A stretch of DNA of 64,000 nt from a virus. The notes under the pieces are model-generated. The model saw only the letters and a program-made list of their open reading frames with translations. It searched no databases and was not told the DNA's origin. The stretch is taken from the IMG/VR virus record IMGVR_UViG_3300013233_000773. One strand, given 5' to 3'. Positions 27,680 through 63,214 of the stretch are shown here, piece by piece (the first letter of the stretch is position 1; each line of letters opens with the position of its first letter). The position numbers and the translations under genes were made by a program.

Positions 27680-27696
27680 GACGCTATATACGCAGA

Positions 27697-43622: not shown

Positions 43623-44996
43623 CTAGTACTCGAAGACGAACCTCGCCCTGCGCAAGCCCCACTTCCTCACGTATCCGCGCTCGGCTGCAAGCTCCGCCTC
43701 CCTCATCCCCATCTTCCGGGCATGGTTGTACATCGTCTTCTTGTGCATCACGAACCCGTCCCGGTCTACGTACCAGTATGAGCGACCAGACCACCCATCG
43801 AACTTCCAGTTGCACGCCCGGTACACCGACCCAGAATGCCCGAACGTACCGTCCGCAAACGACAACAGCAGCCTAGTGGACGACCTGACGCCGCGCAGCA
43901 TCCGCATCGACCTGGACAAGAACCAGCTCAGCAGATTTCTGTTCTCATATCCAGCCCTCCTGCACAGCCTGGTAAGCTCCCTCACCTCCCCAGGGCTCCG
44001 CCCGAGCCTGATCAGGCTCTCATTCCTCGTCACCCCGGCAAACGTGCACACCGCGACCAGTTCGCCATCCATCACGGCTCCGAACCTTATCTGGCTACGG
44101 CCATGGCCCAGCGAATAGGTATAGTGATACTTCTGGATAAACTCCACGGCCTCACGGTTTCCTATCGGGACTACCGAAAGGTCCGACAGGTCCACGTGGA
44201 CCATGCCCACGTCCGCACCCGTCCATGAGCGCACGAGCTCCACCACCTTGCCCCTACACAGGAACTCATGTTCCCATATCGTCCTGACCTTAAGCTCCGG
44301 AAAGTACCGCTCCACATAGGTCGTCTTCGCCTTGTCGTTCCTTACGTGCACCGGAGTGTTGTGGAAATAATCACCATTGCACTCTATCAGGACTCCATGA
44401 TCGGGCAGAAAGCAGTCGAACGCATAATGCCCGATCCTGTGCTCCGGCACGTGCTCGACACCGAGCTCATCAAGGATCGCATAGAGCGTCCTCTGGATGC
44501 CTGAGATCCTCGGCATCGGAGCAAAGATGCCGGTCCCAGCCTCCCTCTGGGAGTCCAGGATCCTCCTTCTCTTGGCGCGGTATCCGTCGTCCAGCCAATA
44601 CCTGCAACGAGCGGCGCAGACCCTCTGACGGTACCCCTCATCCTCTGCGAACTTCCTGCTAACCGTCTCTCCTATCCTCCTACGGACTTCCCCTGACATG
44701 GCCTCCCTACTGCGCCTGCTCCTCTCCTCGCCGGACAGTCCATCCCAGAACGCCCTGGATGCCCTAGACGCCCTCTCCCTGGCCTCCCTGGAGGACCAAG
44801 CCCTAGCCTGCGAGGACTTGCGCGCAGCGACGACGACCGGATGCCTGCGGTAGCACTTAGGGCATAGGTAGGATCCCACGTTACACGCCTGTCTCCTGCA
44901 CTTACGGCGGTGCTCCTTCGGGACCACGCGGTCCTCCCTGCCACACTCCGAGCAGCGCGCAGTGTTCCCGGACAGGCACTGGTCGAAGTCTACCAC
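43623..44996 (-). CDS. second Hef-like endonuclease / Mom-like GNAT fusion
   Basis: Zn finger, basic repeats, FDCFL...LIECNGDYFH...DKAK; YHY...ELTRLC...LSFADGTFGHSGSVYRACNW. Confidence 0.75.
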   Translation of the reverse strand: MVDFDQCLSGNTARCSECGREDRVVPKEHRRKCRRQACNVGSYLCPKCYRRHPVVVAARKSSQARAWSSREARERASRASRAFWDGLSGEERSRRSREAMSGEVRRRIGETVSRKFAEDEGYRQRVCAARCRYWLDDGYRAKRRRILDSQREAGTGIFAPMPRISGIQRTLYAILDELGVEHVPEHRIGHYAFDCFLPDHGVLIECNGDYFHNTPVHVRNDKAKTTYVERYFPELKVRTIWEHEFLCRGKVVELVRSWTGADVGMVHVDLSDLSVVPIGNREAVEFIQKYHYTYSLGHGRSQIRFGAVMDGELVAVCTFAGVTRNESLIRLGRSPGEVRELTRLCRRAGYENRNLLSWFLSRSMRMLRGVRSSTRLLLSFADGTFGHSGSVYRACNWKFDGWSGRSYWYVDRDGFVMHKKTMYNHARKMGMREAELAAERGYVRKWGLRRARFVFEY

Positions 44997-47464
44997 AGCA
45001 CCTGTCCCTCCGAGTACACGTCAAGTTCCTCCTCCGGAGAGGACGCCTCTCCGCGCCGGCTCAGGGGGACTATCACGGACCGAGGCCCTATCTTGAAGCT
45101 GTCCCTCTCCCTATCGTACACGACGTTCATCCTGATCCCGGCTCCCTCCTGCAGGGCCCTCTTGTCGGACGAACCATAGGCGTCCGCCCACACGAAAACC
45201 CTAGCCGTCCGTATCCCGTCATTGACGTGCAGCACATAGAACTGATTGCCCGCCTTGGACGACCTACTCTCTATCTTCTCCACCACGCCCTCAAGCGTAC
45301 CGCCGACCTTCGCCCTCTCGACCGTATGGCCATGTGACCGGAAGGCCTCCATCGGAGAGCTCCAATAGTGTCCGAGAAACTCCTTCTCCATCTCCAGACG
45401 CTCAGCCAGGGACCAGTCCGTCCCGACCGTGGACATGACCTGCCCCCTGGTAACCGTTATCTTAGGTCTCCACTTCGCGATCTTGGACGGCAGCTTCTTC
45501 CTCCTGGGATATAGCTTGAAGTACTCGCTCGCCTGCCTCGCGCGCTCCTTCTCTACCTTCTCCTGCGGCCACTCGAACTTGGCTTCTATCTCCCGGCGGA
45601 GAGCCGTTATCTCCTTTCCAGAGCAGTACTTGTAGAGATACCAGGTCCAGAGAGCCTTCCTGTTCGGATGGATGGAGTCGAACCCACCCAGCTTTATGAG
45701 CCTCTCGAAGATCCTCTTGTCCTTCCCGCACCGCTCGACCATCTCGTCCACGTCACGGAAGGGACCACATACCGACGCAAGCTTCTCCGCCGCCTTGTCT
45801 CCAATTCCCTTGACGGACGCGAGGCCGGGCAAGACCTGGTCCCCACTGACGGTAAAGTCCTTCTCAAGGGAGTTGACGTCCATGGGGGCAAACTCCACGC
45901 CGTCCGACCTTGCCGAGCCCATGTAGCTGCTCATCTTATAGGCAGGACAGGCTGACAGGACTGCAGCCCACCATTCGGCCGGATAGTGCGCCTTGAGATA
46001 CAGGCACCTGTAGGTCATGATGCTGTAGGCCACGGCATGGGACTTATTGAATGCGTATCTCCCAAAGGTAACCATCTGGTCCCACCATTTCCGCGCCTCC
46101 TCCTCGCCGAGCTCCTTGCCGGCCCCGGACATCCACCTCTCCTCGACCCCAGGAAGCTTGTCCAGCCACTTCTTGGAGACTATCTTGCGGGCCTTCTCCG
46201 CCTCAGGAACAGTGAACCTACCAATCTGGATCCACACCGCAGTGAGCTGCTCCTGAAAGCAAATTATCCCATGCGTCTCCTCAAGGATGCGCACGATCCT
46301 AGGATCCATCCCTTTCCTCCAGGACCCCGAATGATCATCGCGCCGCCTGATGTACTCCGGAATCATGTCCATCGGACCCGGACGACCGAGAGCATTATAC
46401 ACGATCAGGTCCCAGAAGTCCCTAACGCCACCGTCCGAAATGATCCCCTTCTGGATGTCAGTCTCGATCTGGAATACAGAGTCCGTCCGCAGATCATTGC
46501 ACATCCGGAGAGCCTCGACGTCGTTGAACGAGATCGGCTCCCTCCTCCCGTCCCTCTCAAGATATCCTGCGACCGGAAGATCGGACCTCGGATCCATCCC
46601 GTCCCAGACGACCAGGACGCCCCTATTGCGCAAGACAAGGTTCCCCGCCTGCCAGACATAGAACATCGTCTTCAAGCCGAGGACGTCGAACTTGATGAGC
46701 CCGAACTTCGAGAGCTGCATGCTCCGGCCCTCGGTCCACTGGCTCGTCCATGTCCCCTTCATCCTAGACAGGGGCACCACCCCACGCAGGTCCCTATCCG
46801 CAATCACGATCCCACCCGCATGCGTAGACTGCGCGCGTATCTTGCCCACGAGCCGAAAGGCCAGATCGACTATCTCCGGATGCTCACTCCTGTACCGCAT
46901 AAACTCCTCAAGACGAGAAGCGTCCACATGAGCCTGCCTGCGCACCTCCGGATCCGGATCCTCTGCGCGCTCAACAAGGCCATCTATGTCCCCCAGCGAC
47001 ATGTCGTCGAACTCGTCCGGAAGACCCTTGGTCATCCTGGACACTGCACGCCAGTCCGCCCCGAGCGCACGCGCCACGTCCGTCAGAGCACTCCTTGGCT
47101 TATACGTCACCCAGTTTCCTATACTGCAGACATGCACATACCTCTCCCTGGCATATTGCTTGATCGTCTCCCGCGCATGCGGCAAGAAGTCAAGGTCTAT
47201 GTCAGGGAAGTCCGTGAGCCGCACCCATTCATGCGAAACTGCCTCGGCCACGGGATCGACGGGAGTCATCCCAAGGAGAAACGGTATGACAAGGCCGTTC
47301 TGATTGTGTTCCCACCTACGCCCCTCAGACACGCACTCGGTCCAGTATGTCTCCGCGCCCTGCTTCGAAATCTCGGCGACCTCAGTCTGAAGACGCTCGA
47401 CATACTCCCCACCCCTCACGGCAGCAGCCGCTGACGCTCTAGAGCACACCTCGTCCCAGTCCAT
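44990..47464 (-). CDS. dnaE: DNA polymerase III alpha subunit, C-terminal catalytic part
   Basis: FPDIDLDF, THAGGIVI, KFDVLGLKT, VFQIE, RPGPM, FQEQ, YAFNKSHAVAY, OB fold. Confidence 0.93.
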   Translation of the reverse strand: MDWDEVCSRASAAAAVRGGEYVERLQTEVAEISKQGAETYWTECVSEGRRWEHNQNGLVIPFLLGMTPVDPVAEAVSHEWVRLTDFPDIDLDFLPHARETIKQYARERYVHVCSIGNWVTYKPRSALTDVARALGADWRAVSRMTKGLPDEFDDMSLGDIDGLVERAEDPDPEVRRQAHVDASRLEEFMRYRSEHPEIVDLAFRLVGKIRAQSTHAGGIVIADRDLRGVVPLSRMKGTWTSQWTEGRSMQLSKFGLIKFDVLGLKTMFYVWQAGNLVLRNRGVLVVWDGMDPRSDLPVAGYLERDGRREPISFNDVEALRMCNDLRTDSVFQIETDIQKGIISDGGVRDFWDLIVYNALGRPGPMDMIPEYIRRRDDHSGSWRKGMDPRIVRILEETHGIICFQEQLTAVWIQIGRFTVPEAEKARKIVSKKWLDKLPGVEERWMSGAGKELGEEEARKWWDQMVTFGRYAFNKSHAVAYSIMTYRCLYLKAHYPAEWWAAVLSACPAYKMSSYMGSARSDGVEFAPMDVNSLEKDFTVSGDQVLPGLASVKGIGDKAAEKLASVCGPFRDVDEMVERCGKDKRIFERLIKLGGFDSIHPNRKALWTWYLYKYCSGKEITALRREIEAKFEWPQEKVEKERARQASEYFKLYPRRKKLPSKIAKWRPKITVTRGQVMSTVGTDWSLAERLEMEKEFLGHYWSSPMEAFRSHGHTVERAKVGGTLEGVVEKIESRSSKAGNQFYVLHVNDGIRTARVFVWADAYGSSDKRALQEGAGIRMNVVYDRERDSFKIGPRSVIVPLSRRGEASSPEEELDVYSEGQVLW

Positions 47465-48341: not shown

Positions 48342-49688
48342 TCACTCCATCTTCACCTGCAGCATCCTGCCGCCCCTGTTCGGGCTCAGGAACCTGTTGA
48401 ACGAAAGTCCCCACGCTATGGGATCCAGGGACGTTATCCCCAGAAGCCAGCACACCAAGGACCCGCCCGCACTCCCCCTCGCCGGACCGATCGGCCAGCC
48501 CCTCCTATGGGAGCAGTCCACCAGGTCCTTAGTAATCAGGAAGTACGAGGCAAAGCCCTTCTCGACGAACCTCCTAAGCTCCAGGATCATCTGCTCCCGA
48601 TAGGTCACCTCCAGGCCGTCCATCGTCGAATACTTCGTATCATCCAGGTGAAGACCACGCCTCTTGAAGCCCTCCCACGCGGCCTGCACCAGGACCGGCA
48701 CGTCGTTCTCAAGCCTAGGTAGCTTCGGCGAGACGTCCGGATCGAACGCCTCGCACATCTCCGCGACCAGCAGCGTCCCGTCACAGGCCTTCTCAAACTC
48801 CGCCAGCCCTACCCCGTCCGAATAGCCCTTCGTAAGGAAGGTCTTCCGAAGCTCCTCCCTCGTCTTGAAGAACTGCTCGTCCGAATTCACGTGGAAAAGC
48901 TCCGGATCGTCTACCGTGGTCCCCTGGTCTATCGCCATCATCGTCTTCTGGACCTCGAAGTCACGCCGTTCGAGATAGTGGCAGTCGTTCGTCAGGACGG
49001 TCCGTATTCCGAACCGGCCGGCCAGCTCAACAAGGGTCCTGAAGGCCTTCACGTCCCCAACCTCCTCGTCGAGGCACGGCATCTGCAGCTCGATGAAGTA
49101 GTTCTCACCGAACGCCTCCTTGAACATCTTGACGTACTCGACCGCGCCGCGGAACTCGCCGCCTGAGAGGTTATCCTGCCTGATCTCGTGAGCGACTGGA
49201 CCGTTAAGGCATCCGGAGAGGACGATGAGTCCCTCGGAGTGCGCGGCCAGGTTCTCGAACCACACCCTGGGCTTGTAGAAGAATCCGTGCTTTATCGCAT
49301 AGTTGTTTATCTTCAGGAGGTTGCCGTATCCGGTCATGTTCCTGCACAGGACGGTAATGTGCCTGTTCCTGCGCATCCTGGCGTTCAGTCCGCGCTGCGT
49401 CTCGAGCAGGTCCTTGACCTTTCCTCCGGACTCGACCAGCTTCCTCCTGCGCTGCTCGTAGTCGTTGTAGTACAGCTCGCACCCCGCTATGAACTTCACG
49501 GAGTGCTCAGTTGCCGAGATGTGCGCGTCCGGGATGCTGCTCATCGTCCCGTGCTCGGTTATGGCGAAGGCCGGCCACCCCCGTTCTGCGCAGGCACCGA
49601 AGTAGGCCTCTGGTTCGGCGACCCCGTCCAGCATGCTGAAGATGGTATGGTTGTGCAGGTGCACGAACTGTTCAGGAGCAGCGTCCAT
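48342..49688 (-). CDS. dnaE: DNA polymerase III alpha subunit, N-terminal PHP part
   Basis: FVHLHNHT, AITEHG, GCELY, LSGCLNG, TNDCHY, RGSAGGSLVCWLLGIT..DP, FNRFLSP. Confidence 0.93.
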   Translation of the reverse strand: MDAAPEQFVHLHNHTIFSMLDGVAEPEAYFGACAERGWPAFAITEHGTMSSIPDAHISATEHSVKFIAGCELYYNDYEQRRRKLVESGGKVKDLLETQRGLNARMRRNRHITVLCRNMTGYGNLLKINNYAIKHGFFYKPRVWFENLAAHSEGLIVLSGCLNGPVAHEIRQDNLSGGEFRGAVEYVKMFKEAFGENYFIELQMPCLDEEVGDVKAFRTLVELAGRFGIRTVLTNDCHYLERRDFEVQKTMMAIDQGTTVDDPELFHVNSDEQFFKTREELRKTFLTKGYSDGVGLAEFEKACDGTLLVAEMCEAFDPDVSPKLPRLENDVPVLVQAAWEGFKRRGLHLDDTKYSTMDGLEVTYREQMILELRRFVEKGFASYFLITKDLVDCSHRRGWPIGPARGSAGGSLVCWLLGITSLDPIAWGLSFNRFLSPNRGGRMLQVKME

Positions 49689-57530: not shown

Positions 57531-58379
57531 ATGGCAGATCGCGCACGCACGGCAGCCACGCTCATCCTCGTCGCCGCAACCGCCGGCTGCATATCCGGAA
57601 ACCGCGCCAACCACACCGACACCGGACCACAGGTCCTGGCAGGCCCCGTCATCGCCGTCCGCGACCCCGCCGACGCCGCCGCAGGCAGGAAGCAGATAGT
57701 CTCCGACCTCAAGGACCAGATAGTCACCAGCTCCAACGCCACCAGGAACCAGCTCTCCGGAATGGTCACCACCAGCATATCCAAGCTCGGAGAGAAGGTG
57801 ACAGGCATAGAGGCCTCCATCCAGAGCCTCCTCCACATGGACCTCACCGCAGACGTCAAGGCAAGCCTCAACAACCAGCTCAAGGCCACCGCCGAGATGC
57901 ACAACAGCATAGAGTCCCTGCTCAAGGTGCAGAGCACCGTACAGGGAAACCTCGAAAGCCTAGTCCGCATCAACGGAGAGCTCCGCGCCCAGGTCAACGG
58001 CCTCGAAGCCAGCCTCAACGCCCTCGCCAACGGCCAAGCAGGCATAGGAAACAAGATAACCAGCAGCATGGACCGCATTGATTCGTCCATGCGCGCCAAC
58101 GCAGGACGCGACGTCAACATGTTCCCAAAGCAGGCAGTCGACGCCCTCATAGCCTCCTGGCGCACCTTCACGGCAGTCATAGCCATGATCCTCGCCCTCA
58201 TCGCCGCCATCACCGCATACCTCTACCGCAGCAGAAGGGACGAACTCCACAGACGATACGAACTCGAACGCGCCCGCAACAAGGCGACGAACGACCTGCT
58301 CCACCACGCCCTCCTCCACGTCCCGCCCGAAAAGGCCAAGCAGATATTGCCAGACCAGCCACCGGCCCCGACCACATAG
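57531..58379 (+). CDS. putative lipoprotein with coiled coil and C-terminal TM (u-spanin-like architecture)
   Basis: Signal ending ATAGC; long heptad region; TM FTAVIAMILALIAAITAYLY then RSRR. Confidence 0.6.
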   Translation: MADRARTAATLILVAATAGCISGNRANHTDTGPQVLAGPVIAVRDPADAAAGRKQIVSDLKDQIVTSSNATRNQLSGMVTTSISKLGEKVTGIEASIQSLLHMDLTADVKASLNNQLKATAEMHNSIESLLKVQSTVQGNLESLVRINGELRAQVNGLEASLNALANGQAGIGNKITSSMDRIDSSMRANAGRDVNMFPKQAVDALIASWRTFTAVIAMILALIAAITAYLYRSRRDELHRRYELERARNKATNDLLHHALLHVPPEKAKQILPDQPPAPTT

Positions 58380-58389
58380 GACCGAGCGG

Positions 58390-59178
58390 TCAAACCGGCC
58401 ACGGAACGACAGGCCTCCGCCTCCTGGAAAGCCTCCCAGGAACACGGGGCACGCACTCGGAAGGGTTCAGGATACAATACAGGTCATCTATCTCCCACCC
58501 CTGACGAACCACCCCACGGCACAGCGACGACTCAAGCACCGCCGCCCACTTCCCCTCCCCACGATCATGCACCCACGCCCTACACACCCGCCCGACCAGC
58601 CTAGAACCCCAAGCGTTCCAACCACGCTTCGGGGAGAACCTCTGCCTACGCACAAGCTCACCACAGCGGACCCACCCGGCACCGGGCAGCCTAATGAAAC
58701 CATCTCCGAAGAGCACCCTCTCGTGTACCGGAGCCCCAGTGCCCCTATCCGCCCTAAAGCACCCATGGTCACCACCGCGCAGGACCCTCGGAAGGTCCCC
58801 AACCGACCTCACGGACGGACGGACGAAGTCAAGGACCGCCACTACGTCCCTGGCGGCCTGCTCGAGCACCACGGGGTGCACCGGCCTCAGCTCCCTGTGC
58901 GACCATGTTAGCTCAACCAGGTCCCCTAGGACGTCCTTCATCTCGAACACTGGTAGGGAACGGCCCTCCACGATCGCCCTATACCACCCGGACAGGATCC
59001 AGTTGTGGACGAACCTAGTCGCTAAACATGACCTGCTGAAGGACTCCTCCTGCTCCTCCCCAGGATACAGGTGTACGGCGTGCCTGTCGAACAGCCTGAT
59101 CCCGGACCGTATGCGGACATCGAACTCGGCCATCCGGTCAAGTCCTCCACTCAGTGCCTCTTTGCACATTGGAAACAT
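58390..59178 (-). CDS. hypothetical protein
   Basis: 262-aa ORF with GAGG upstream. Confidence 0.55.
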   Translation of the reverse strand: MFPMCKEALSGGLDRMAEFDVRIRSGIRLFDRHAVHLYPGEEQEESFSRSCLATRFVHNWILSGWYRAIVEGRSLPVFEMKDVLGDLVELTWSHRELRPVHPVVLEQAARDVVAVLDFVRPSVRSVGDLPRVLRGGDHGCFRADRGTGAPVHERVLFGDGFIRLPGAGWVRCGELVRRQRFSPKRGWNAWGSRLVGRVCRAWVHDRGEGKWAAVLESSLCRGVVRQGWEIDDLYCILNPSECVPRVPGRLSRRRRPVVPWPV

Positions 59179-59214
59179 ATCCTCTGAACCAGGACTCTCA
59201 GGAGAGGGGCAAGC

Positions 59215-59924
59215 GGCCTGTCCTCTTAGTCGATCCAGAGCGTATATAGCGTCACTGGAGGGAAAGGACCCTCCCGAGGGGACAGGCCTGATCTTTAGAA
59301 GGGCCAGTCCAGGCGGTCGTTAGAAAGGCAGCCGGGTCACCGACCCTGCAGCGCGTCGTGATGACGCCCTGTGTGACCAGGCGGACCCGTTCAAATGGGT
59401 ACGGCTAGACCGCCAAGACAAAAACAGCAAAGCCTAGGGCGCAGTTAAAGCCAAGCAGGACAGAGGACCGCCGGTGAACTCTAAAGTCTCATAGCCGGCA
59501 ACACAGAACGCCATCGTGAACCGGACCGGGCGTGGCACCCCGGAAACGACACGATGCCGGCACGGCGCTGCACATGCTGCTCGATCACGGCACTAGAAAA
59601 AGCCGAACGGGGCACACACGACGCTGAGTGAGGATGGAAAGGGACGACAAGCCACCTTCTCCTGAGAGCACATGTGCAGGACAGACCGACCGGAATAACC
59701 AGCGGGCCAAGAACAGGCGACTGTCCTTGGCGCCGGAGAGTAGCGGTAATCAGTCCGCCACGATGGAACTCCGGCAATGCGGACCTCTGCTTGGTCGTGA
59801 CCGCCCGGACGAGATCCGGATGGACGCGCGAAAGGAAGCATCCTGGCCACGCCATGGTCACCTGTCTAGAGGACCATGGCCCACGTTTAACAAGGATGGT
59901 ACCTTGGAGGTGATGAACTAGGCT
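59215..59924 (+). ncRNA. candidate large structured non-coding RNA (~700 nt), class unknown
   Basis: About 20 complementary segments, mostly nested, including long-range AGCCTAG/CTAGGCT and CCAAGCAG/CTGCTTGG; A-rich linkers on + strand; no convincing ORF. Confidence 0.65.
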
Positions 59925-59965
59925 ACTGACAACCAAATAACTGGATCCATCTCATGGCCAGTGGG

Positions 59966-60115
59966 CTCATTCTCTCCTGCCACATGCAGCGGCACACCAA
60001 GGAGAAGAGGAAGAGGAAGAGAAAGATAGACATAAAACCAGTGCCATTGACCTCATTGACCTCATTCTCTCCTGCCACATGCAGCACAACACCAAGGAGA
60101 GGAAGAGGAAGTAGA
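59966..60115 (+). repeat. two ~55-nt direct repeats (25-nt identical core plus purine tract)
   Basis: CTCATTCTCTCCTGCCACATGCAGC at 59966-59990 and 60061-60085, each followed by CACCAAGGAGA...GGAAGAGGAAG. Confidence 0.9.
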
Positions 60116-60448
60116 AGGCGGCAGTCGTTCCCTTCTGCCATATGGAGTGGATCCAGTGCTGGGGGCCAGGAAGTTCCTCTCCCTTGTCCTAGTGGGCCAT
60201 GGACAGCAGGATAGATCAGTGGTCACCGCAGGATCTGGAGGCCAACAGCTGAGGTTCCGGTTATCTTGTTGAAGTCCCGGTTACCTCTACCCCTGATAGC
60301 GATGGGACAGCTGACTGTTACTGGTGGACTGCTAGTATAGAGTACCGCTGGTCCAGGGCCTTGCAGGCGGCGGATGCGGATGCAACTGGAGACATCATAT
60401 CCAGACAGAGAACGGACAACTAGAAGAAAATGAGCCAATGAGTGAGAC

Positions 60449-60495
60449 AAAACAACCGGTTGTGATAGATAAGGAACATAAAACAACCGGTTGTG
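60449..60495. promoter_or_regulatory. paired palindromic operator/iteron-like sites
   Basis: AAAACAACCGGTTGTG at 60449-60464 and 60480-60495, containing palindrome ACAACCGGTTGT, 31-nt period, AT-rich context. Confidence 0.7.
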
Positions 60496-60562
60496 GTCTA
60501 AAGAAGTTACTTGCATTTAGTCTCTTATTTGATATCGTGACCCTGGTCTTGGAGAAGACAAA

Positions 60563-61105: not shown

Positions 61106-63214
61106 ATGCCGAGCGCGACCAAGCTGCCAAAGAGAGCAAACGATGGTGACCAGGTGGCCGACCACCTCGGCAACGTCTACGAGTACAGCTCCGAACAGAA
61201 CTGCTGGCGCAACATAGGCATCCTGAAGCCTCCACAGGTGGTCGACTCCGAGAACAATGGTATCATCACCCCAGAAATATTCGATAGGATACAGTCCATA
61301 CGGAAATTCAAGAAGGACGGAGTCAAGTTCGACCTCAACAAGATATTCGTCGGCAGGACCGACCGGCACCCCTACTTCTACATGTTCCACTCGACGGACG
61401 ACCTGATCAGGTTCGACCCCTACGTCGAACCGGACGGAACCGTCAAGCTGCCGATAGAGTTCGACCGCCAGAGGTTCTATCAAAAGCTCACGCGCACACC
61501 GTGCACAGGGCCACGTGGTCACCAGGGGCCGCCAGGACTTCCTGGAAAGGACGGCAAGCCGGCACCGAACGAAAGGCCAAGGTCACCGGTCAAGCTCGAC
61601 AAGGACTCATTCACGATCAATCCGGTCAGGATCCCCGCCCCGCTTCCCGACGAGCCAATCTCGGTTCGGGTCTTTGACAACGACGAACAGGTTCTCGAGG
61701 TGCTCGTTCCGGTCGGCACCGGAGACCTGGAGGCCGTTGATGGACCGGTCTTTACCGTCGACCTCGAGAGGACAGACCTCTCGTTCAACGATGGCATGCT
61801 CGGCGGAACTGTCTTCGTCAGCAGCGGAGAGTTCGTCAACGAGCCGAACAGGTGGAGGTACAGGGCTAGGCAGCGGGGCAGGGCGGGGCCGCCAGGAAGG
61901 GACGGATCCGGTCTGCTTGAGGTCGTCGAGGACATGTTCGTTGACGATGCAGTGTCCTTCAACGGGTTCGTGGCGTCCGTTCACGTTACCCCGACGGAGG
62001 ATGTAGTCGTCCTTAATGGCTCCTTGTCGGACAAGCTGTGCAGCAGTTCCCTTAAGCTGACCTCCGAGGACCTGCCGGTCGCCGACCTGCTCGAGAGGCG
62101 GGTGGTGGCCGTGGAGCAGGCCGCGAAGAGCTGCAAGGACGTGGCCTCGTACACGTTCAAGCCGGACGAGGTGGTGGTCCCGAAGCTCTCCCTGCCCGAC
62201 TGGACTCCGACGATGGCGTGTAGGGATCAGAGGAGGTTCGAGTTCCAGAAGTTCAAGTGGTTCGACGAGATTGGGGAGATAGTGCCCGAGAACGCCGACT
62301 GCATGACGGCGGGCTTCGCGTTCACGATCCTTGGAGAACCGAAGCCTGGCGTGGAGTGCTGCAAGGAGGATTTCTTCCTATGCAACAACCAGGGAGACTT
62401 CTGCGTGATCGACGGGTCTCCTGCAGTCGTTTCGCGCGGTGAGAACTCGCCGGAGCCGTCCGCCACGGTCGGGACGGTCAGTTCGAGCACGGCAGTCGTG
62501 GAGACGCCCGACTTCATCATTCCGGAGCCGGAGCCCGTCAAGGAGGGGAAGATAGTGCCGGCGAGGTGTCCGTTCGGATCCTCGTCGTCTTCCAGTTCGA
62601 CAAGCTCCTCCAGTTCGTCCAGCTCGAGCTCATCTTCACTCGGGTCCAGTTCGTCCAGCTCGTCGTCCAGCTCTTCATCGTCTAGTTCAAGCTCGTCGAG
62701 TTCAAGCTCGTCCAGCTCTTCGTCGTCGAGTTCGTCCAGCTCCAGCTCGTCCAGCGCATTGACTGAGTGCTGTACGGACGGGCTGTCGGCGTCGTATAAG
62801 GTGATCTGCGGGGCGGTGTTCTGCGACTCGAACGATCCCTCAGGATTTGCCAAGAACTTTGCATTCCTGGAGTTCAACAAGGGATGCTTTATCAAGTGCA
62901 CGGAGGTCAATAGTGGTGCCTGCACGTCGTGCACGACGAATGAGTTCGTCGGGCGGTGTGAGCTGACGTGTCCAGCCGGTGGCGCCAATGGCTTTGGTCA
63001 TCTGGACGAGAAGACAGTAACCCTGAAGTGGAAGGACAAGATCCTACAGAACGTACTCCACAATGAGTGTGGCGCAGATAGCGTCAACACCCCCTTCACT
63101 GGTACGATAAAGCTTGCGTGCGACGTTCTCTGTGAGAACGGAAATCCGAAGGTGAAGTACATAAAATTCATCTTCACCAACGGATGCCTGAATGGTATTA
63201 TTGGCTGTCAATAA
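61106..63214 (+). CDS. virion-like protein with collagen-like triplets, long poly-Ser tract and Cys-rich C-terminus
   Basis: GPRGHQGPPGLPGKDG; 56 Ser in 59 codons (62579-62755). Confidence 0.75.
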   Translation: MPSATKLPKRANDGDQVADHLGNVYEYSSEQNCWRNIGILKPPQVVDSENNGIITPEIFDRIQSIRKFKKDGVKFDLNKIFVGRTDRHPYFYMFHSTDDLIRFDPYVEPDGTVKLPIEFDRQRFYQKLTRTPCTGPRGHQGPPGLPGKDGKPAPNERPRSPVKLDKDSFTINPVRIPAPLPDEPISVRVFDNDEQVLEVLVPVGTGDLEAVDGPVFTVDLERTDLSFNDGMLGGTVFVSSGEFVNEPNRWRYRARQRGRAGPPGRDGSGLLEVVEDMFVDDAVSFNGFVASVHVTPTEDVVVLNGSLSDKLCSSSLKLTSEDLPVADLLERRVVAVEQAAKSCKDVASYTFKPDEVVVPKLSLPDWTPTMACRDQRRFEFQKFKWFDEIGEIVPENADCMTAGFAFTILGEPKPGVECCKEDFFLCNNQGDFCVIDGSPAVVSRGENSPEPSATVGTVSSSTAVVETPDFIIPEPEPVKEGKIVPARCPFGSSSSSSSTSSSSSSSSSSSSLGSSSSSSSSSSSSSSSSSSSSSSSSSSSSSSSSSSSSSALTECCTDGLSASYKVICGAVFCDSNDPSGFAKNFAFLEFNKGCFIKCTEVNSGACTSCTTNEFVGRCELTCPAGGANGFGHLDEKTVTLKWKDKILQNVLHNECGADSVNTPFTGTIKLACDVLCENGNPKVKYIKFIFTNGCLNGIIGCQ

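Follow-up and report, generated by a model that had tools for sequence, protein, structure and literature searches.

The gap between divergent genes

The window, 64,000 nucleotides of viral DNA that make up bases 61117-125116 of a 140.5-kb IMG/VR record, belongs to a phage that encodes a ribonucleotide reductase with an intein, a split DnaE, DnaB, a baseplate hub, and Mom-fusion proteins. The CheckV completeness of the record, 38%, implies a phage size of ~350 kb. DnaE occupies two ORFs on the minus strand of the window (44990-47464 and 48342-49688) that are ~880 nt apart. Genes run leftward up to position 59178 and rightward from 60563, and the ~1.4 kb between them (59179-60562) is the longest non-coding gap of the 140.5-kb record, counted after removal of three ORFs that scored as non-coding. 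Inside the leftward block, an ORF on the plus strand (57531-58379) scored as gene-like in its codon usage (0.26) and carries both a lipobox and a C-terminal transmembrane helix; a 286-aa minus-strand ORF that overlaps it scored as non-coding.

The leftward block ends at the gap with an ORF (58390-59178, minus strand) that carries the N-terminal half of a TnpB, described as its WED/REC half, without RuvC or zinc ribbon. This ORF matches PF12323 (HTH_OrfB_IS605) at 23-26 bits and has phage-like codon usage. Over residues 32-178, it is 29-31% identical to full-length TnpBs, aligned with their first ~165 residues, and it ends ahead of the RuvC motif. A GGAGGA located 9 nt before an ATG at 59133 suggests that the true start is at 59133, and the N-terminal TnpB remnant amounts to 215 aa. 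No PF01385 or PF07282 match and no RuvC or zinc-ribbon remnant was found near it, and close homologues were found neither among 5.8 billion proteins nor in IMG/VR; a structure prediction made without an alignment was unusable (pLDDT of 38). The ORF could be a pseudogene, or a fragment exapted for binding RNA or DNA. Elsewhere, a 407-aa TnpB-like gene (P0005; L010 644-1867 and L011 1107-2330) has no detectable zinc-ribbon/TNB domain and sits tightly wedged between phage-like genes and a Cpn10 gene, where starts and stops overlap. This packing leaves no room for a 3' guide RNA, and P0005 may be a domesticated TnpB.

A preliminary description of the window had proposed a structured noncoding RNA of ~700 nt in the gap, noting the lack of a convincing ORF and an abundance of complementary segments. 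Both observations hold. ORFs of 59179-60562 have codon-usage log-likelihoods of -0.19 to +0.01 versus a real-gene mean of 0.24 (SD 0.13) and no Pfam or PHROGs matches, and the complementary segments are in place when the sequence is read directly. On the same codon-usage scores and empty Pfam and PHROGs searches, we also rejected the idea that the gap is degraded coding sequence. All three domains that the preliminary description drew fold better than dinucleotide shuffles, with z-scores of about -3 to -4: -3.73 on the plus and -2.07 on the minus strand for domain 1, -2.98 and -3.23 for domain 2, and -4.02 and -4.01 for domain 3. The whole 741 nt yielded -3.55 and -2.49, compared to a background of -0.2 to -0.4 (mean; SD 1.3) for 200-nt windows of the same phage. 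Thermodynamics alone does not allow a choice of strand.

The proposed lack of group I, group II, RNase P, and tmRNA hallmarks was likewise borne out, with zero matches in Rfam 15. Its 4227 families returned nothing at the gathering score in the 64-kb window and nothing relevant at E ≤ 10 between 57500 and 61000, group I and II introns included, so that the region matched none of the covariance-model families GOLLD, ROOL, OLE, HEARO, RNase P, tmRNA, or group I/II intron of that release. ARAGORN detected no tRNA or tmRNA genes.

A covarying core shared with two other huge phages

A DNA search of GenBank phages yielded no relative of the RNA region, and the phage's own genome holds no second copy. 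The 702-aa gene to the right of the gap (61106-63214) does have relatives, and an alignment of its family (A2) led to one IMG/VR record (G001; 354 kb, 98% complete) and 25 JGI loci (L020-L044). Using nhmmer with the window gap as query, we obtained matches only in L020 (8606-8812, E = 2e-5) and L021 (8538-8725, E = 1.6e-4), both metagenomic huge-phage contigs, whose neighboring 702-aa-family genes are 39-44% identical to that of the window. In both, the element occupies a non-coding gap of about 800 nt, oriented as in the window, with the 702-aa-family gene 1.3-1.5 kb downstream. The two regions fold with z-scores of -4.4 (L020) and -2.1 (L021), GC content rises at the element in L020, and Rfam at E ≤ 1 returned nothing in either contig. 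We then have an RNA that looks to be common to three distantly related ~350-kb phages.

More distant relatives gave no detectable copy. The first relatives obtained (L006, L007, and G001) contain no similar DNA, and covariance model R1 detected no copy anywhere in the 354 kb of G001, which also has no large gap. The syntenic region of G001 consists of a ~100-nt divergent junction and a ~350-nt, poorly structured spacer with (CCAGTTGAA)n repeats, which also carries GCAGGACAG. A tandem (CCAGTTGAA)n array occurs at both G001 contig ends (L019 7920-8092 and L013 1-120), indicating that the assembly broke inside the repeat at this syntenic intergenic region. Across 30 loci and the whole of G001, R1 recovered only the three known copies, besides a weak partial match at L031 6237-6285 (E = 0.18) that keeps the small hairpin and GUCGU-AAAA without the 18-mer and hairpin Ha (see below), and that could be a reduced relative or a chance match. 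A strict invariant-column pattern had 0 matches in IMG/VR and in one genome per bacterial or archaeal species. Pattern CAGYARGACRGAGGMCCGC had four matches in IMG/VR, which we dropped: L045 and L048 had no HMM match, and L046 and L047 matched the core HMM solely across the pattern itself, in what reads as a protein-coding gene, and are thus chance matches.

Because MAFFT misaligned the covarying stems, we compared the three sequences by coordinates and by covariance-model alignment instead. A covariance model built from the window sequence and structure alone (59705-59822) found, in 371 kb searched on both strands, only two other significant matches, L020 8810-8906 and L021 8700-8794 (E of ~5e-4). 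The shared core would begin with a small hairpin, Hs (59432-59440, GCC-UAG-GGC), whose place is taken by other stems in the relatives, CAGC/GCUG in L020 and CGUC/GACG in L021 (alignment A4, cmsearch). There follows a conserved 18-mer, AGCAGGACAGAGGACCGC (59454-59471; L020 8737, L021 8624), identical in L021 and with four changes in L020. It overlaps the 5' arm (59451-59458) of a long-range helix, Px, whose 3' arm lies at 59787-59794 (L020 8734-41 with 8872-79; L021 8621-28 with 8761-68). Px forms 8 bp in all three sequences, with three compensatory columns and one column changing from G-C to G-U. The GCGGA that precedes its 3' arm (59779-83) pairs with CCGC, as 59468-71 with 59779-82 (L020 8751-54 with 8858-61; L021 8638-41 with 8748-51), a pairing that is invariant and hence uninformative for covariation. 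We envision that Px, continued by CCGC/GCGG, closes a multihelix junction containing hairpin Ha, a variable arm, hairpin Pv, and hairpin Pw, with hairpin Pz beyond it.

Ha (59472-59497; L020 8755-79; L021 8642-65) has two compensatory columns, compared to 0 in slid controls. Pv (59707-59730) is capped by a GNRA tetraloop at 59717-20, GCGA in the window and in L021 and GCAA in L020; both its stems covary, with 7 of 9 pairs changing on both sides. Pw (59733-59774; L020 8836-57; L021 8728-48) pairs in 100% of cells, with half of its pairs (3/6) compensatory. Pz (59805-59819; L020 8889-8903; L021 8775-93) shows three compensatory pairs out of five around a conserved pentaloop, C-R-A-G-A. Beyond Pz comes a block ending in GACAACC (59927 in the window). 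The four hairpins common to the three phages thus have covarying stems and fixed loops (the GNRA tetraloop and the C-R-AGA pentaloop). Two helices of the preliminary description, CCAAGCAG/CTGCTTGG (our Px) and GCCGGAG/CTCCGGC (our Pw), reappear here with compensatory changes among the three phages, and its AGGACAG/CTGTCCT arm is displaced by the conserved Pv. A loop-linker pairing in the window, CUUUAGA/UCUAAAG, was dropped since it is not conserved.

Overall, the two relatives keep the base-paired structure with abundant covariation and without a protein frame. In the covariance-model alignment of the 3' core, which comprises three sequences and leans toward the modeled structure, 96.6% of cells are paired and both sides change in 13 of the 20 pairs, a number reached by 0 of 500 shuffles; controls with slid partners gave at most three such pairs. 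A count by coordinates across seven helices, which excludes Hs, finds compensatory changes in 18 of 35 pair columns and a single unpaired cell among 105. With only three sequences, these event counts are small. The homologues hence display compensatory base pairs (in a model-fitted alignment of three) and no conserved reading frame: the aligned core contains in-frame stops in L020, and loops differ by indels of 1-2 nt. Sequence conservation of the RNA region is not above that of the neighboring gene, which we count against a conserved RNA. The comparison also settled the strand, where thermodynamics could not. All eight G-U cells fall on the plus strand, with one A/C mismatch pointing the other way, and together with the GNRA loops they bear out the earlier assignment of the plus strand as the RNA. 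From these sequence comparisons, a conserved structured RNA at the locus is very probable.

The window copy, at ~680 nt, is longer than those of L020 and L021 (~350-390 nt), and the extra length stems from two lineage-specific expansion segments, by which it would have grown. Expansion 1 (59500-59704, ~205 nt between Ha and Pv, where the relatives have only ~28-33 nt) contains the arms CATCGTG/CACGATG and TGCACATG/CATGTGCA, as well as a partial copy of the 18-mer at 59675. Expansion 2 (59823-59915, ~90 nt after Pz) includes GCCATGGTC/GACCATGGC; the relatives have ~20 nt between Pz and a block resembling GUUGAGGAG / GACAACC. The fold of the 5' domain (59305-59421; domain 2 of the preliminary description) is seen in the window only. 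It scores a z of -2.98 and its motif UUAGAAAGGCAGCC is shared with L020, but covariance model R3 of the fold found nothing in L020 or L021. The proposed AGCCTAG/CTAGGCT closure competes with Hs and is without comparative support. Domain 1 (59215-59288) folds better than shuffles, yet it spans a promoter-like box (see below) and has no counterpart in the relatives. Hence, of the ~700-nt anatomy originally drawn, two helices covary, whereas ~285 nt are window-specific expansions and domain 1 straddles the box.

Promoter-like box, downstream genes, and competing readings

Upstream of the element, all three phages carry a GTATATA[AG] box, GTATATAG at 59242-59249 in the window (plus strand), with counterparts at L020 8590 and L021 8445. 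In the 140-kb record, all four GTATATAG sites lie outside genes or just upstream of them, and the site at 59240 shares a 15-nt identity with 27693-27679 (minus strand), which directly abuts an ATG. Start codons follow the box by 3-56 nt in related phages, and one and the same gene has it in five phages; GTATATA[AG] sites occur at 27684-27691 (minus strand) and at L013 449 and 5162, L025 13273, L028 13919, L031 13765, and L039 13703. GTATATA[AG] is accordingly our candidate for a phage promoter of this huge-phage group, which would drive transcription of the RNA on the plus strand. The RNA would start at about 59255-59260, ~7 nt past the box, which would leave the 5' arm of the earlier domain 1 outside it. 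We place the structured RNA tentatively at 59256-59935 (plus strand), with ends suggested by the folding z-scores and by L020/L021 homology that reaches from UUAGAAAGGCAGCC (59320) to GACAACC (59927).

The explanation that we favor, and consider probable, is that ~59256-59935 is a plus-strand gene for a conserved, highly structured noncoding RNA of a non-Rfam family, transcribed from the GTATATA[AG] phage promoter. Homology, synteny, covariation, strand, and the conserved promoter-like box are direct observations; we infer that the RNA is transcribed, and that it has a folded role of its own rather than being part of the downstream mRNA. The 5' domain fold, which is not conserved, and the distant relatives without a detectable copy, G001 among them, speak against this explanation. 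If the RNA is indeed conserved and structured, a stand-alone molecule has an even chance of being correct, a cis-acting leader a distinctly smaller one, and an origin primer a slim one. A stand-alone RNA might serve as a scaffold or as the partner of a phage or host protein.

The most serious competitor is that the RNA is a cis-acting structured leader, i.e., a long 5' untranslated region of the rightward operon that includes the 702-aa-family gene, where it would govern the read-through or translation of those genes, for instance through processive antitermination or the binding of a protein. The order of RNA, one small gene, and 702-aa-family gene, all co-oriented, is constant in the three phages. 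No intrinsic terminator was found in the window, and a strict scan detected none on the plus strand of L020 or L021. Between core and gene there is also an island, GCGGATGCGGAT (60370-60381; L020 9267-9278; L021 9107-9118; plus strand), that is invariant in all three and lies 90-190 nt before the next gene. The hairpin that comes after it has its own stem sequence in each phage, and L020 and L021 repeat the heptamer GCGGAUG within their RNA cores. Constant orientation and position before the 702-aa-family gene, the missing terminator in the window, and the GCGGATGCGGAT island are what favor a leader.

Against it, the gene immediately downstream is unrelated among the three phages (a coiled-coil protein with a CxxC motif, a coiled-coil protein, and a rubrerythrin-like protein), and 300-600 nt of low-complexity sequence separate the core from it. 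In L020 and L021, a hairpin and U-run follow the RNA after a long C/A-rich tail, with the GCGGATGCGGAT island coming only after them, and ahead of the next gene there is a match to a further recurring, promoter-like motif, CAAAAGATAA / AAAACATAA. A CAAAGATA-type motif has five exact copies in the window. Expansion segments of 200 nt would moreover be unusual in a regulatory leader. The differing downstream gene, the hairpin with U-run, the separate motif before the gene, and the tolerated expansions thus favor a stand-alone RNA.

Phage processive-antitermination and leader RNAs include the boxA/boxB of lambda nut and the put RNAs of HK022. Like these, the window RNA precedes an operon of the same orientation with a probable structural gene among its members, and ~11 nt beyond a conserved segment it carries a short hairpin whose pentaloop is fixed. 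However, it is 5-10 times larger, and we found no N-like or Q-like partner for it. Compared to lambda nut, the segment before the pentaloop hairpin is base-paired (Px) rather than a linear boxA, and the loop starts with C, not G. We regard a leader as unlikely, though it fares best among the alternatives.

The preliminary description had also suggested an origin-associated primer, i.e., an RNA transcribed into the repeats on its right that would prime replication through an R-loop. Transcripts of this type are known from ColE1 (RNA II) and from the T4 origins oriF and oriG, and the predicted long, folded, noncoding transcript of the window resembles them in pointing into repeats at a skew minimum. 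In the window, cumulative GC skew reaches its minimum at the element, where the two gene blocks also diverge; downstream, between 59940 and 60560, come two direct repeats of 62 nt that contain polypurine tracts, as well as two ACAACCGGTTGT palindromes. The gap contains motif GCAGGANAGA five times versus an expected 0.14 (59455, 59676, 59971 on the minus strand, 60066 on the minus strand, and 60206), and only once more elsewhere in 140 kb.

L020 and L021 have none of these direct repeats, polypurine tracts, or ACAACCGGTTGT palindromes, and their downstream tracts are C/A-rich, poor for R-loops, and, in contrast to the ColE1 and T4 transcripts, no conserved hybrid-forming G-rich block is present. 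In L020, a tail-fibre-like gene of the same orientation precedes the element, the strand switch is 1.5 kb away, and GC skew shows no turn at the element. In the window itself, gene orientation switches where the skew does, so that the skew cannot count as separate evidence for an origin. The conserved 18-mer and its duplicate within the RNA account for two of the five GCAGGANAGA copies, and the 98%-complete G001 has neither the RNA nor a large gap. Since repeats and origin-like context are not conserved, the origin reading comes down to window-specific features, and we consider it very unlikely.

Finally, we considered whether the RNA is the noncoding part of a decayed mobile element tied to the tnpB remnant, such as an IStron group I intron, an omega-RNA-like guide, or IS ends. 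An IStron is a group I intron fused to an IS200/IS605 element, with a ribozyme that shares the strand of tnpB and lies on its 5' side within a host gene, and TnpB omega-RNAs lie at or overlap the 3' end of tnpB on the same strand and are co-inherited with it. The resemblance is that a structured RNA adjoins a tnpB-derived ORF, as it does for omega-RNAs and IStron ribozymes, the latter placed 5' of tnpB (PMC4227781; bioRxiv 10.1101/2023.11.20.567912); here the TnpB fragment begins 37-80 nt from the structured region, and more distant relatives lack both the big gap and tnpB. Yet the ORF has no nuclease half, and the RNA lies 5' of it and is encoded by the other strand; nor is the association conserved, as L020 and L021 have the RNA and no TnpB homologue in their flanks. 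There is no group I/II match even at E ≤ 10, tnpA and resolvase remnants were looked for and not found, and the invariant-column pattern found no copy in IMG/VR or in one genome per bacterial or archaeal species. An IStron was rejected since there is no group I match, the strand is opposite to tnpB, no gene is interrupted, and relatives lack tnpB, and a group I intron or IStron on the minus strand since Rfam gave no match at E ≤ 10, the strand is wrong, and tnpB is not conserved with the RNA. An omega-RNA was rejected since the RNA lies 5' of the ORF on the opposite strand and occurs without tnpB in L020 and L021. A mobile-element origin is hence scarcely credible, and the TnpB ORF next to the RNA is a bystander that is unrelated to it.

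Comparison with large phage RNAs and significance

The preliminary description had offered a new large noncoding RNA class as one of its two readings, and in broad terms this is the one that stands: the region is non-coding, matches no Rfam family, and has a conserved structure with covariation, although the link to an origin is not supported and the proposed anatomy holds only in part. The closest comparison is with GOLLD and ROOL, large ornate RNAs that are often borne by phages or prophages and whose structures have been described (PMC12286853). Like them, the window RNA has several hundred nucleotides and many helices and is phage-encoded and noncoding. Unlike them, it and its relatives match neither their Rfam models nor any other, its three known members all reside in T4-like huge phages, and no tRNAs lie near it. 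It looks, from its sequence and predicted fold, like a new RNA family within a known kind, the large structured RNAs carried by phages.

To our knowledge, few large structured RNAs of bacteria and phages are known. The classes described to date, GOLLD, ROOL, OLE, and HEARO, proved to be guide RNAs or to build assemblies that had not been expected. We put forward, as a tentative proposal that falls somewhat short of even confidence, that the locus encodes an undescribed class of structured RNA of 350-700 nt, restricted to a clade of ~350-kb T4-like phages, that would stand alone during infection and have an active role of its own. If true, it could act as a ribozyme, make up an RNA scaffold or cage, or serve as a decoy that draws a host RNA-binding protein to its A/C-rich or purine-rich tail. 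Its tolerance of 200-nt expansion segments would be shared with RNase P and ribosomal RNAs. The comparison also exposes a GTATATA[AG] promoter-like box that is conserved across the phage group, and covariance models R1 and R2 can now be used for mining metagenomes. With its covarying core, fixed loop motifs, and natural expansions in uncultured huge phages, the RNA offers a ready target for probing and cryo-EM.
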